DNA of 63,100 nucleotides, counting the filler, from Malassezia furfur (Eukaryota): assembly GCA_052055015.1 (NCBI GenBank). It is 9 parts of 9 records of this genome, joined end to end, with 100 filler letters (N's around TTAATTAATTAA, not from the genome) between each part and the next. Parts side by side here need not be neighbours in the genome. Positions count along the whole stretch, not along the records: positions 1 to 7,058 come from JBQJIT010000514.1; 8 more parts are not named here. One strand, written 5' to 3'. A program made the position numbers and the translations under genes. Positions 2,871-21,321 of the stretch are shown in pieces; the first letter of the stretch is position 1; every line of letters begins with the position of its first letter. The notes under the pieces are model-generated. The model ran no database searches and was not told where the DNA came from. It saw only the letters and a program-made list of their open reading frames with translations.

Positions 2871-4451
2871 TCACACCATCACCACGCCGTTGCCCGAGCC
2901 AAACAGCGTGGGGTTCGGCACGCTTGCGCCGCCCGCGGCCGCGGGGTCCAGCTCGCGCTCGCCCGCGCGCTGCCCAAGCCCGCCCGCAAGCGGCGGCACA
3001 CGCCAGTTGAACAGGTAGAAGCGCAGAAATCCGTCCCCGGGGCCAAACTTGAGGTCGGGCGCAAACATGGGGTTGTCGAGCACCGTCAGGCAGTTGACCA
3101 CGTCGAAGCGCTGCTGCTTCGCCAGGACGAGCATGTCGGTCATGAGCGCTTGCAGCCGCGTCTTGAGCGCCTCGCGCTGCTCCACGGGCTCCTCGTACCA
3201 CGGGCGCACGTCGGCCTCGTCGGCAAGCTCGGCGTTCGTCAGCTTGCTCAGCCCGGCGCACTCCCACGCCGCCGCGCCGCCGCTCCGCGCCGCGTCGTAC
3301 GCCGACGGGCCCTCGGCCACGTCCGGGCGCGGGAGCACCGGTGCGCTCCACGCCGCTTCGGTCGCGTAATAGAAGAGGTAGGCGGCCTCGAGCGTGTCAT
3401 GCTGGTCGTGCTCAAGGATGGAGGAGGGCAGCGAGTAGAACGAAAAGAAGTCGGTGATGTGCCCGTCGTCGCGCGCCACGACCCACGTCCACGTCACCTG
3501 GCCCTTGCGCGCGACGCCGTCCGCGGCACCGCCGCGCCCGCTGAGCAGGAGGTGCGCGACCTCGGCGTCCGTGTAGCGCGGCGCCATATCAAAGCGGCGC
3601 AGGAAGCGGCGCAGCAGACGTGCGACCTGCGGCACGTCCTCTGGCACCATCTCGCGCAGGCCAGGCAGCGCCGTCTTCTTCGGCAGGTGGAAGCGCGCGA
3701 TGTGCGCATCGCGCGACATGCCCTGCGGCACGGCGCTGAAGCCAATGTCGAGCAGCTTGGACGCATTCAGTGTGCGGTGGTAGTAGCGCGAGCACGACAC
3801 GGGCGTTGGCAGCACGGAGCCGACGGTATAGATCGCCTGGAAGATGCCCGAGCGGTTGCACCGCCGCGTCACCTCCTTGATGAGCACGGGAGCGAACCGC
3901 TTGCTGCGCAGTTTCTTGTGCACGCACAAGAAGTTGATTTCGACCGACTGCCGCGCCATGTCGCGCACGCGCAGCTCCTGCGGGATGCCCGCGATGAATG
4001 CCACGAGCTTGTTGGTCGACACGACCCGCACGCCGACGTGCCACGACTTGTCGTAGCCTGGGTGCCGCAGCACCCAGTGCAGGAATGCAGGCGAGTACTT
4101 GAACCGCATCGTCGAGTCGTCGTCCTCGACGTAGTTCGCCGTGAGCAGCTCGTACACCTCGTGCAGCTGCGCCTCGTCATCCATGTCGACCGTGACCCAC
4201 GTAAAGTCGGGCGGCAGTGGGTACGGCGTCGCGCGCACCTGCTCGGGCGCGAGGTCGGGGTGGATGGGCCCGGCGTCCAGCGCAGGGCTGTCGCCCGGCT
4301 GGGCGACTGGCTGCGTCTTCCAGAACTTGTGCTCGCTCGGCGGAGGCTTTGGCGCAGCTGCACCGCTGCCGCTGCCGCCGTCAAGCATCGCCATGAGCCG
4401 CGCGAGGTTGTGCAGCGAGGCGGCGTCCTTGCGTTCTTCTTCTGGGGGCAT
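2871..4451 (-). CDS. NMT1: Glycylpeptide N-myristoyltransferase
   Basis: HKFWKTQPV, NYVEDDD, EINFLCVHKKLRSKR, KFGPGDG motifs; C-terminal GVVMV. Confidence 0.97.
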   Translation of the reverse strand: MPPEEERKDAASLHNLARLMAMLDGGSGSGAAAPKPPPSEHKFWKTQPVAQPGDSPALDAGPIHPDLAPEQVRATPYPLPPDFTWVTVDMDDEAQLHEVYELLTANYVEDDDSTMRFKYSPAFLHWVLRHPGYDKSWHVGVRVVSTNKLVAFIAGIPQELRVRDMARQSVEINFLCVHKKLRSKRFAPVLIKEVTRRCNRSGIFQAIYTVGSVLPTPVSCSRYYHRTLNASKLLDIGFSAVPQGMSRDAHIARFHLPKKTALPGLREMVPEDVPQVARLLRRFLRRFDMAPRYTDAEVAHLLLSGRGGAADGVARKGQVTWTWVVARDDGHITDFFSFYSLPSSILEHDQHDTLEAAYLFYYATEAAWSAPVLPRPDVAEGPSAYDAARSGGAAAWECAGLSKLTNAELADEADVRPWYEEPVEQREALKTRLQALMTDMLVLAKQQRFDVVNCLTVLDNPMFAPDLKFGPGDGFLRFYLFNWRVPPLAGGLGQRAGERELDPAAAGGASVPNPTLFGSGNGVVMV

Positions 4452-4538
4452 GGTCGTCAAGCACGTGGCACTCCACCCAGTCTAACCCCCTACCCCTCCA
4501 CCACCGCCGCCGCCGCCACTTTTGCGTCCGCGTGGGCC

Positions 4539-5507
4539 ATGGTACGTGTTTTTGTGCTGACCCAGTCGTATGGCTTCCTGAACAAGCAGAACACCGCGAA
4601 TGCGGGGTCATCCTCCGCAGAGACACCCATCCTCTGCGAAACATGTCTCGGGCCGAACCCATACGTGCGCATGTCGCGCCAGCACCTCGGCAAGGAGTGC
4701 AAAGTGTGCGGCCGGCCGTTTACCGTCTTCCGCTGGAACCCCGGCGCGGGGATGCGCTTCAAGAAGACGGAGATCTGCACGACCTGTGCCAAGCTCAAGC
4801 ACGTGTGCCAGACGTGCATCCTTGACCTCGACTACCACCTCCCCACGCACGTCCGTGATGCGGCGCTCCACATCCAAAGCGCGATACCCACGTCGGACAT
4901 CAACCGGCAGTACTATGTGAACCGCATGGAAGCGCTCATGGACGACGAGCAGGCCGCGCCGCAGACGGGACCTGCGCGCGGCGCGGCACATGCGACGCTC
5001 CAAAAGCTCGCGCGCGATACGCCGGACTACAAGCGCAATCGGCCGCAGATCTGCTCGTTCTACGCGCGCGGCGCGTGCACACGCGGCGAAGCGTGCCCGT
5101 ACCGGCATGAGATGCCGAGCGACGCGCCGCGGCAGAGCATTGCCGACCGCTACCACGGCACCAACGACGTCGTGGCGAAGCACATGCTCCAGCGCCTTGC
5201 GCAAGCGAAAGGGCTGACGCCGCCCGCGAACGAGGCCATCATGTCGCTCTTCCTCTCCGGACTGCCCGAGATCAGCGAGGACGGCGTGCGTGCCGCGTTC
5301 CTGGAGAGCGTGCCGGGCCTGCATGCAGACGACATCCGCCAGGTGACGCTGGTGCCGGCGTCGCACTGTGCGTTTGTCAACTTTGCGACGCGTGCGGCCG
5401 CCGAGCGCGCCGCCGAGAGCCTCGCGGTGAAGGTGGAGATTGATGGCAAAGAGGTGCGTGTGGCGTGGGGCCGAACGCCCGCCAAGTCGCGCGAAAAGGA
5501 AACATAG
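4539..5507 (+). CDS. SLT11: Pre-mRNA splicing factor Slt11/RBM22, intron 4542-4565 immediately after ATG
   Basis: PILCETCLGPNPYVRM, ECKVCGRPFTVFRW, KKTEICTTCAKLKHVCQTC, CCCH finger and C-terminal RRM. Confidence 0.93.
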   Translation: MVRVFVLTQSYGFLNKQNTANAGSSSAETPILCETCLGPNPYVRMSRQHLGKECKVCGRPFTVFRWNPGAGMRFKKTEICTTCAKLKHVCQTCILDLDYHLPTHVRDAALHIQSAIPTSDINRQYYVNRMEALMDDEQAAPQTGPARGAAHATLQKLARDTPDYKRNRPQICSFYARGACTRGEACPYRHEMPSDAPRQSIADRYHGTNDVVAKHMLQRLAQAKGLTPPANEAIMSLFLSGLPEISEDGVRAAFLESVPGLHADDIRQVTLVPASHCAFVNFATRAAAERAAESLAVKVEIDGKEVRVAWGRTPAKSREKET

Positions 5508-5531: not shown

Positions 5532-6382
5532 CTACTTGCGACCCTTGCCCTTGGCCTTTTTGGTGGTGATCGGCGTGCCCTCGCGCGCCTCGCGCCCACC
5601 GCTCATCCAGTCGAGGTCGCCCTCGTCAAACGACACGGCCTGCTCGACCTGCACGGCGGCCGCAGCGTCCTCGGCGAAGCGGCGGCGGAAGCGGCCGAGG
5701 CGGCCCGTGTCGTCCTCCGTGTCGCTCTGCGCCGCGCGGCCCATCGTCGGGTTCCACAGCGGGTTGTTGGTGATGTCGCGCGTGAGGCGCACGAGGTGGC
5801 GCGGCGACGTCGTCGTGAGCTGGATCGACGAGCCATCGGCAAGGATGACACGCTGCGGGAACTGCGCGACAGGGCGCGGCAGCGGCGCGGCGCGGGCGTC
5901 CGGGCTGGCGCGCGTCGCGTAGGTGCGGGCGTGCATCCTCGCGTCGGGCCGCGCGTGTGTGTGCAAGTGGGCCGAGGAGCACGGCGTGCGCCGGCCCTGG
6001 GTGCGCTGGATCTCGTCCATCGATGGCGCGCGGCGGGAGCGGCGGATGGTGTCGTTCGAGCCCAGCTCGGTGTCCTTGGTGAAGCGGAGCTCTGTGGTGA
6101 GCCTTTCCAGCACGTACTGTACTTGTGCGGGTCGTCCTCGCCTGCGACGCCCTGCACGACGTTGTGCCGGAAGAGCGCGGCGACCTGCTCGCCCATGGCG
6201 AGACCATCGTCGATTTTCTGAGCGTCGGTCTCGTTGCGAGCCTCGAGGAACCGCCGGCGGGTCTCGTCGTGTGCGGCACGCACTGCGCGCTCGTCACCCG
6301 CAAACACGGTGCGCGTCGTGCGCAGCAGCGTGCGGTACAGCGCGGTCGCGCGCCGCTGCTGCACGGGCGAAAAGGCCGACAT
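5532..6382 (-). CDS. Fusion of Mzm1/LYRM7 (complex III Rieske chaperone) and mitoribosomal bL31m (MrpL36); intron 6092-6117; 274 aa
   Basis: N-half: ALYRTLLR...FAGD...RHNVVQG...KDTELGSNDTI (Mzm1); C-half: VILADGSS...TRDITNNPLWNP...GRLGRFRRRF (bL31m); no stop between them. Confidence 0.85.
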
Positions 6383-6488: not shown

Positions 6489-7058
6489 ATGGTGTCTGCC
6501 GGGGGACGAGTGTACGTCGCTACCACACTAACGCAGCTCGCGCAAGGTGCGCATCACCGTCGTGGCCGCAGATGGGCTCGCCAAGGTACGTGGGCCGCCG
6601 CCGTGCGGCGGGGAGGGCAGACAGACTAACCCCAGCGCGATGTGTTCCGCTTGCCGGACCCGTTTGCCATTGTCACCGTCGACGGCGAACAGACGCACAC
6701 AACGTCCGTCATCAAGAAGACGCTCAACCCGTACTGGAATGACTCGTTCGATATCACCGTGAACGACGCCTCGGTCGTCGCCGTGCAAATCTTTGACCAG
6801 AAAAAGTTTAAAAAGCGCGACCAGGGCTTCCTCGGCGTGATCAACGTGCGCGTCGCCGACGTCATTGACCTCGAGCTTGGCGGCAAGGCGCTGCTCACGC
6901 GCGACCTGAAGAAGTCGAACGACAACCTCGTCGTGCACGGCAAGCTTATTATCGACCTCAACACCAACGTCGGCGGTCCGGCCGACAATGCAGCGCCGCC
7001 GTGAGTGCCCCGGCGCCGCCGCAGGCGCCACGGGCGCGGCACGCACCGGCTCGTCGTG
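6489..7058 (+). CDS. RSP5: Rsp5/Nedd4 E3 ligase, N-terminal C2 domain (partial); introns 6512-6536, 6586-6635
   Basis: [49 protein letters not shown]...[17 protein letters not shown]. Confidence 0.93.
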
Positions 7059-7158
7059 NNNNNNNNNNNNNNNNNNNNNNNNNNNNNNNNNNNNNNNNNN
7101 NNTTAATTAATTAANNNNNNNNNNNNNNNNNNNNNNNNNNNNNNNNNNNNNNNNNNNN
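7059..7158. other. Artificial contig spacer (N44-TTAATTAATTAA-N44)
   Basis: 100-nt N run with a central all-frame stop linker, repeated identically 8 times. Confidence 0.99.
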
Positions 7159-14180: not shown

Positions 14181-14280
14181 NNNNNNNNNNNNNNNNNNNN
14201 NNNNNNNNNNNNNNNNNNNNNNNNTTAATTAATTAANNNNNNNNNNNNNNNNNNNNNNNNNNNNNNNNNNNNNNNNNNNN
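14181..14280. other. Artificial contig spacer
   Basis: N run with TTAATTAATTAA. Confidence 0.99.
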
Positions 14281-21221: not shown

Positions 21222-21321
21222 NNNNNNNNNNNNNNNNNNNNNNNNNNNNNNNNNNNNNNNNNNNNTTAATTAATTAANNNNNNNNNNNNNNNNNNNNNNN
21301 NNNNNNNNNNNNNNNNNNNNN
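21222..21321. other. Artificial contig spacer
   Basis: N run with TTAATTAATTAA. Confidence 0.99.

Follow-up and report, generated by a model that had tools for sequence, protein, structure and literature searches.

A single gene of the yeast Malassezia furfur encodes two mitochondrial proteins in one continuous frame: a LYR-domain protein, apparently of the Mzm1/LYRM7 type, and behind it the mitoribosomal protein bL31m (MrpL36 in Saccharomyces cerevisiae). The gene lies on the minus strand of a 63,100-nucleotide stretch of DNA, joined from nine parts of GenBank assembly GCA_052055015.1; this whole stretch is referred to as the window. We consider it probable that the gene specifies a composite mitochondrial precursor, to be cut by MPP, the matrix processing peptidase, near R144-T145-Y146/A147. 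An earlier reading of the window's DNA (the original prediction) had proposed the same, and the analysis below follows it up.

Structure of the fused gene

The gene runs from an ATG at position 6382 to a TAG ending at position 5532 (Table 1). Removal of one intron gives a coding sequence of 825 nucleotides, with 274 codons and a single terminal stop. The spliced product is identical to the 272-residue M. furfur protein P0003 at 263 of 274 positions, the splice-junction residues included. The originally predicted 26-nucleotide intron (6117-6092) is thus borne out, as is the absence of stops in the spliced frame from ...RTPCSS through AHLHTHARPDARMHARTYATRASP. Such a short intron is ordinary for Malassezia, since the mean intron size in the curated M. 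sympodialis annotation is 30 bp (PMC5389616, Table 2).

The GC content is 66.9% in the window and 71% in the fused gene, and a stop-free frame is by itself weak evidence, because DNA this rich in GC keeps even the unspliced, non-homologous frame open for 259 codons. The fused frame goes beyond chance because both its halves match Pfam families and because the same frame recurs in dozens of species. A profile search of the 63-kb window revealed no second copy of either half.

Table 1. Features of the fused Mzm1-bL31m gene in the window.
Feature	Position	Strand	Support
Start codon ATG	6380..6382	-	N-terminus agrees with M. furfur P0003
Exon 1, 88 codons and first base of codon 89; three-helix LYR domain (putatively Mzm1/LYRM7-type)	6118..6382	-	Pfam Complex1_LYR, residues 10-66 = DNA 6355-6185
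26-nt spliceosomal intron, GTACGT...CTCAC...CAG	6092..6117	-	Junction residues are those of the annotated M. furfur protein
Exon 2	5535..6091	-	Frame open to TAG
Exon 2 start, C-terminal Mzm1 tail (LRFTKDTELGSNDTI ... RTPCSS)	5973..6091	-	Tail shared by stand-alone relatives
Linker, 30 residues (AHLHTHARPDARMHARTYATRASPDARAAP), presequence-like, predicted disordered	5883..5972	-	AlphaFold2 confidence, composition
MPP-consensus-like site R144-T145-Y146-A147-T148, predicted cut Y146/A147	5913..5927	-	Motif conservation in relatives
In-frame internal ATG (Met141), unconserved, 4 codons ahead of the predicted cut	5934..5936	-	Val at this position in M. brasiliensis
bL31m module (yeast MrpL36 family), LPRPVAQFPQRVILADGSS to KKAKGKGRK end	5535..5882	-	Pfam bL31_N = DNA 5864-5745; PDB matches
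Stop codon TAG	5532..5534	-	Frame end

The LYR module

Exon 1 matches the Pfam family Complex1_LYR (PF05347) over residues 10-66 with 32.3 bits (cut-off 24.8, E 1e-7), and exon 2 matches bL31_N (PF21492) with 29.1 bits (cut-off 27, E 7.7e-7), so that profile hidden Markov models place both domains above threshold. The L15-Y16-R17 motif is present in the window protein. Across 54 fused relatives no variation is seen at L15, Y16 and F27, and T96, E97, L98 and G99 are likewise invariant in the alignment of fused relatives. An AlphaFold2 model of P0003 was calculated with 54 fused relatives (mean predicted local distance difference test score, pLDDT, 68.3; predicted template modelling score 0.36). 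It contains two confident modules, and the segment connecting them, at about residues 123-149, has a pLDDT below 50. The N-terminal module has helices at residues 6-26, 31-49 and 54-73, with block means of the pLDDT of 89-95 over residues 11-70; at the bL31 hairpin, residues 160-180, the pLDDT is about 78. Comparison of the model with the PDB by Foldseek gave no matches at E<=0.001, the weak top rows being bL31m chains (E 0.012-0.06) and LYR proteins, among the latter ISD11, with root mean square deviations of 1.4-1.6 Å over about 65 residues and every E >0.001.

In yeast and human, Mzm1/LYRM7 is a matrix protein that keeps the Rieske Fe/S protein stable ahead of its incorporation into complex III. 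Like stand-alone Mzm1/LYRM7, the N-terminal half of the fused protein consists of a LYR three-helix domain, tail segments with NVVQG and TELG-N, and a short Cys-containing end; the stand-alone proteins stop at 80-150 aa, whereas here the frame continues into bL31m. A profile of the LYR half, run against 1.84 billion representative proteins, retrieves 672 at E<=1e-3, nearly all of them stand-alone and 80-150 aa long. The strict TELG-N motif is present in seven of the 143 profile matches examined. Stand-alone relatives end about 30-45 residues past TELG-N, several of them with ...QPCS, ...KKCS or ...CCSS, comparable to ...RTPCSS here. The original prediction took Mzm1 to be complete at ...PCSS, and the similar end points of these relatives after TELG agree with this.

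The N-terminus is basic: 59 full-length relatives have on average 5.1 Lys and Arg in the first 30 residues, and 0.53 Asp and Glu in the first 28. With a Pfam LYR match from residue 10 onwards and the LYR motif itself at residues 15-17, a separate N-terminal presequence appears to be lacking. Stand-alone LYR relatives likewise begin directly with the LYR domain. In the M. yamatoensis model P0007, eight extra residues are located exactly at the position of the short intron (alignment columns 93-100), which suggests a mis-modelled splice.

The bL31m module

The assignment of the C-terminal half to bL31m/MrpL36, already made in the original prediction, is confirmed both by the bL31_N match and by mitoribosome chains in the PDB. 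Exon 2 matches bL31m of Neurospora crassa (6yw5_V, 2e-7) and of yeast (3j6b_V/5mrc, 2.7e-6), as well as 8ux4_V (1.2e-4). The core aligns with stand-alone bL31m (MrpL36; 6YW5 chain V) from P-x-P-x-x-F-P through DGS...TSPR...RD.TN.PLWNP...GRL.RF. In the solved stand-alone proteins this conserved core begins at about residue 39 (yeast) or 47-55 (Neurospora), so the 30-residue linker stands where stand-alone bL31m has its N-terminal leader. Stand-alone forms of bL31m have a Met of their own and a 20-50-residue presequence, the place of which is taken here by the linker behind Mzm1.

Basidiomycete bL31m also has a conserved C-terminal extension, D-L-D-W-M-S-G-G-R-E-A-R ... K-G-K-G-K-K (window 5535-5640, minus strand), in which 54 fused proteins all share D245, W248, G251 and G252. 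Its L-D-W-M-S is also present in the stand-alone forms of Naganishia and Melampsora; the extension aligns weakly to the Neurospora chain.

The linker and its processing motif

The joint was scored in 76 sequences (75 relatives and the window protein) over a segment that opens directly behind TELGSNDT and closes 14 residues short of ILADGS, covering both the Mzm1 tail and the linker proper. Anchors were located by regular expression, of TELG type upstream and I/L/V-L/M-S/A-DGS downstream, and relatives without either anchor were dropped (for example P0018, P0068, P0059 and P0090). The segment measures 26-109 residues and is always in frame. Past its first 20 residues it is composed of 27% Ser and 18% Ala, with only 3.6% Asp and Glu versus 11% in the whole proteins, and between classes the linker cannot be aligned.

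One element recurs, R-x-F/Y-S/A-T/S, as RAFST, RSFST or RGYST, and as RTYAT in the window. The MPP consensus given by Woellhaf et al., quoting Vögtle et al., has [R][AFR][FLY] before the cut and [AKLS][HSTQ] after it (PMC5063612); RTY/AT fits it at four of the five positions. In its strict form, R[AFR][FLY][AKLS][HSTQ], the consensus is found in 41 of the 76 linkers, compared to a mean of 1.4 and a maximum of 7 over 1000 shuffles, and outside the linker in none of the 76 proteins. The relaxed form, R.[FLY][AKLS][HSTQ], is found in 70 linkers (shuffle mean 4.8, maximum 14) and outside the linker in three proteins. Among the sequences compared, the R-x-F/Y motif is the sole conserved feature of a linker that is otherwise free in length and sequence. 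The MPP-type site of the original prediction, R-x-Y followed by A or S, therefore stands as a motif conserved far above shuffled sequence.

Stand-alone basidiomycete bL31m has a leader of 20-35 residues that ends in R-x-x-S-S-S or R-S-F-T-S and is followed by the P-x-P-x-x-[FY]-P core. Because these leaders end alike before the same core, the motif in the linker is most simply the surviving end of an ancestral presequence, and the site looks like the retained terminus of the one bL31m once had.

Linkers of the Ustilago group (for example P0036, P0039 and P0043) are about 75 residues long and contain R-A-F-S-T together with a weaker second repeat about 40 residues downstream (S-G-F-A-S-S; R-G-F-A-S-S in Melanopsichium). 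This second repeat hints at either two processing sites or a duplicated presequence end.

Distribution and origin of the fusion

In protein searches, the two proteins are fused in entries from Ustilaginomycotina, and Agaricomycotina and Pucciniomycotina have entries in which bL31m is separate. Exon 2 as query retrieved 62 proteins at E<=1e-3 and a profile search 148 at the same threshold, the best 120 of which are listed; the counts and names of this paragraph and the next hold among the matches listed. Both halves are present in at least 32 named entries (252-368 aa), all of them from Ustilaginomycotina and belonging to three classes: Malasseziomycetes (Malassezia, at least ten species-level names), Ustilaginomycetes (Ustilago, Sporisorium, Pseudozyma, Kalmanozyma, Melanopsichium, Testicularia, Violaceomyces and Thecaphora) and Exobasidiomycetes (Exobasidium, Tilletia, Tilletiaria, Ceraceosorus, Meira, Microstroma, Parajaminaea and Sympodiomycopsis). 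Taxonomy was looked up for nine names; the remaining genera are placed in the classes to which we take them to belong.

The bL31m part alone, with its own Met and a short leader, is found in at least 12 named Agaricomycotina and Pucciniomycotina entries of 105-192 aa: Melampsora (two), Naganishia (two), Mycena, Ceratobasidium, Rhizoctonia, Pleurotus, Dentipellis, Sistotremastrum, Gloeopeniophorella and Auriscalpium. The protein profile search gave no named stand-alone bL31m from a Ustilaginomycotina species. Shorter unnamed matches are mostly single open reading frame (ORF) calls of exon 2, in which the TELG tail leads straight into bL31m (P0006, P0032, P0041 and P0053). Since single open frames on metagenome and run contigs span the joint, its continuity does not depend on how introns are modelled.

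At the level of protein sequence, the fusion reaches beyond Malassezia to all Ustilaginomycotina classes sampled. We take it to have a single origin, at the root of the subphylum, in which it is apparently the sole source of bL31m. For the arrangement before the fusion, 80 metagenome loci with stand-alone-type bL31m (665,567 bases) were searched in six frames with a Mzm1-relative profile, which gave no matches even at E<=10; 57 of these loci have at least 1 kb and 14 at least 9 kb upstream, their contigs have no assigned taxa and introns could hide weak matches. For the window gene, this profile gives 7.6e-35. The loci thus show no sign that Mzm1 and bL31m genes are adjacent outside the subphylum, a negative hint against a simple read-through of ancestral neighbours.

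Proposed maturation of the precursor

In the mechanism we propose, the N-terminal 128 residues would form a complete chaperone of the Mzm1/LYRM7 type and the C-terminal approximately 128 residues the large-subunit protein bL31m. The precursor would be imported by Mzm1's own route, presumably targeted, like stand-alone Mzm1, by a first helix that is basic and free of acidic residues, perhaps with help from the internal presequence-like segment. In the matrix, MPP would cut the disordered linker between the third and fourth positions of the conserved R-x-(F/Y)-(S/A)-(T/S) site, here after Y146. The same end could be reached by a cut after T145, followed by removal of Y146 by Icp55, and in species with R-A-F-S-T-S an octapeptide removal of the Oct1 type is conceivable. 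Mzm1 would be released with about 146 residues, 18 of which form a tail, and bL31m as a mature protein of 128 residues starting at A147. This scheme follows the documented behaviour of Arg5,6, Atp25 and Rsm22-Cox11 (PMC8734313, PMC5063612).

Several observations weigh against this proposal or parts of it. The motif counts given above come from related sequences and hence do not represent independent events. At position -2 the window site has T, where the strict consensus allows A, F or R, and the window linker contains two Asp residues. The Arg of the motif is absent from 6 of the 76 linkers (four Tilletia proteins, Meira and P0089), in which just x-F-S-T or F-H-T remains. One supplement file (14,595 characters) of the M. 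sympodialis proteogenomics paper PMC5389616 contains none of the six peptides expected, the full peptide tables being outside the scope of that check. The status of the fusion as only bL31m source was read from absent named stand-alone protein matches, not from genome searches. One protein, P0091 (195 aa), is a stand-alone bL31m with a Ustilaginomycotina-like core (LPRPVP...) and tail (WMSVGGREARAGS...KGKGKKK), its own Met and a basic leader; it could represent a lineage without the fusion, near the subphylum's base, or a truncated ORF call. Finally, the placing of the LYR half in the Mzm1/LYRM7 subfamily is putative, based on source names, tail architecture, one Atlas cluster name (score 0.90) and what is known of the yeast and human proteins.

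Alternative interpretations

The fusion may stay uncut, as a bifunctional protein the bL31m half of which holds the LYR chaperone at the mitoribosome's central protuberance. Cleavage of the fused protein is a prediction, the long, predicted-flexible linker would let both modules fold independently, and the linkers that lack the motif Arg are compatible with this arrangement. LYR proteins are, furthermore, known on mitoribosome assembly intermediates, and chain L0R8F8 is among the weak structural matches. We nevertheless regard a permanently joined protein as unlikely: what the linkers have kept is precisely an MPP-consensus motif that is rare elsewhere in the same proteins, and yeast Mzm1 acts in the matrix as a soluble chaperone for Rip1. 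The characterised mitochondrial tandem precursors with a joint of this kind that are treated in the relevant passages of PMC8734313 and PMC5063612 are all cut.

That the LYR half is another LYR protein, for instance one for mitoribosome assembly, in which case the pairing would be of ribosome with ribosome, seems very unlikely to us. Pfam resolves the general LYR family only. A PDB search with the stand-alone vertebrate-type relative P0182 found no solved LYRM7/Mzm1 structure for comparison, and a search for shorter homologues with residues 1-125 of P0003 returned only four fragments among 13 candidates, which did not help in naming. Independent sources, on the other hand, label the fused proteins as 'Mitochondrial zinc maintenance protein 1', as 'related to MZM1', as 'complex III assembly factor LYRM7' or as 'complex III protein'. 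Atlas look-up of the fragment P0126 gave LYR-family neighbours only, one cluster of which bears the first of these names, and the best of the mostly short proteins retrieved by the LYR profile share both the TELG-N tail and the Cys-containing end.

Two separately made proteins are a third option: bL31m would be translated from an internal start or from its own transcript, and the open joint would be incidental read-through in GC-rich DNA. The window does contain an in-frame ATG at 5936, and long open frames arise by chance at 67-71% GC. This Met141 is, however, replaced by Val in M. brasiliensis, and being four codons before the predicted cut it would leave too little room for a presequence. 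The linker has no Met at all in 39 of 62 full-length fused relatives, for which reason translation from an own AUG cannot be the general route to bL31m in these fungi; a linker Met at least ten residues upstream of the motif is found in only 12 of the 62. The frame is kept through joints of widely different length in more than 70 sequences with zero stops, and the listed matches contain no named stand-alone bL31m from the subphylum. Taken with these points, separate synthesis is highly improbable.

An assembly or annotation artefact (a missing stop or merged gene models), for which only the general risk of merged models in compact genomes speaks, has a negligible chance and was rejected: about 30 named species, each assembled independently, share the unbroken frame with many metagenome ORFs, and the stop after CSS that the original prediction associated with an assembly error is not seen across species.

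A further-reaching form of the composite-precursor model can be formulated, which we hold to be decidedly unlikely. Throughout the subphylum, bL31m would have no gene of its own and would reach the matrix solely as cargo behind a presequence-less Rieske chaperone, with the sole MPP site internal. In its bolder version, an uncut fraction might dock the complex III chaperone on the mitoribosome, or the Mzm1 cap might keep bL31m from interfering with cytosolic ribosomes. If this were true, the supply of mitoribosomes would be tied 1:1 to the assembly of complex III for a functional reason, not by accident.

Comparison with other composite precursors

The closest known system is the Rsm22-Cox11 tandem precursor of Schizosaccharomyces pombe (Khalimonchuk et al. 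2006, cited in PMC4381221 and PMC8734313), and the original prediction's choice of it as a precedent for a split tandem precursor was sound. In both cases one nuclear gene encodes a mitoribosome-related protein and an oxidative phosphorylation assembly factor with a presequence-like joint between them. The partners of Rsm22-Cox11 are a small-subunit methyltransferase-like factor and a complex IV copper chaperone, instead of a large-subunit structural protein and a complex III chaperone, and the order is reversed, the assembly factor coming first in Mzm1-bL31m. Rsm22-Cox11 is cut in two after import, whereas cleavage of Mzm1-bL31m is predicted. Rsm22-Cox11 presumably has an N-terminal presequence, while Mzm1-bL31m starts directly with the LYR domain.

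Yeast Arg5,6 and Atp25 also have an internal segment resembling a mitochondrial targeting sequence, with an MPP consensus at the junction, and their tandem state is kept over a large fungal clade (PMC8734313, PMC5063612). One product of Atp25 binds the mitoribosome, as the bL31m half would here. Unlike Mzm1-bL31m, Arg5,6 comprises two enzymes of one pathway, and Atp25 comprises Rsf and a protein that stabilises mRNA. In both, the N-terminal presequence is cleavable and the sites have been mapped by experiment; in Mzm1-bL31m the site is predicted and an N-terminal presequence appears to be lacking.

The fusions collected in Table 2 of Angerer 2015 are nine predicted LYRM fusions, the sole LYRM7 entry being a CS-domain fusion in Dictyostelium; LYRM7 with ribosomal L31 is absent from that table, and the author considers that LYRM fusions may be cut like Rsm22-Cox11 (PMC4381221). 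The composite precursors listed in PMC8734313 are Arg5,6, Atp25, Etp1, Rsm22-Cox11, SPAC22A12.08c and rice RPS14, a list that does not contain the Mzm1-bL31m pairing. Searches of the full-text literature, with subscription-only papers outside their reach, found no description of a Mzm1/LYRM7-bL31m pairing, in agreement with the earlier claim that it is undescribed. The gene models themselves are already public and labelled MZM1, with a few Joint Genome Institute models named 'ribosomal protein L31' or 'LYRM7'. As far as computation goes, the interpretation is supported that Mzm1-bL31m joins the known class of tandem mitochondrial precursors split by MPP.

Neighbouring genes and other features of the window

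Convergent to the fused gene, a gene for a Slt11/RBM22-type splicing factor occupies window positions 4203-5507 on the plus strand (Pfam STL11_N 7.9e-27; RBM22 CCCH finger 6.7e-12). Its stop ends at 5507, 24 nucleotides from the stop of the fused gene, so the 3' untranslated regions of the two genes either overlap or are extremely short. On the other side, positions 6630-7004 of the plus strand contain an open frame with a C2 domain (Pfam 1.5e-16), divergent to the fused gene; the upstream region shared between this frame and the fused-gene ATG measures at most about 250 nucleotides.

The window contains sixteen runs of 44 N, 704 N in total. They form pairs with 12 bases between the two runs, and the pairs recur regularly, about every 7 kb (7059-7158, 14181-14280, 21222-21321 and so on). 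They look like masking, not assembly gaps; one pair breaks the C2-domain gene.

Implications

Natural tandem mitochondrial precursors are rare and are the main evidence for MPP as an internal processing protease. Mzm1-bL31m adds a case that is conserved over three fungal classes, including the model fungus Ustilago maydis, which is tractable in experiments, and the human skin yeasts Malassezia. Two of its traits are unusual: the leading partner appears to have no cleavable presequence, and the partner behind it, a structural protein of the mitoribosome, has apparently lost its independent gene. One partner of such fusions is often mitoribosomal (PMC5063612), an observation which Mzm1-bL31m fits and extends. 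For annotation, the finding is a correction, since the label 'Mitochondrial zinc maintenance protein 1' hides what is apparently the only bL31m of these genomes. The fusion also provides a natural system in which to ask why two such proteins are joined, be it to shield the cytosolic translation machinery, for stoichiometric co-expression, or by chance.

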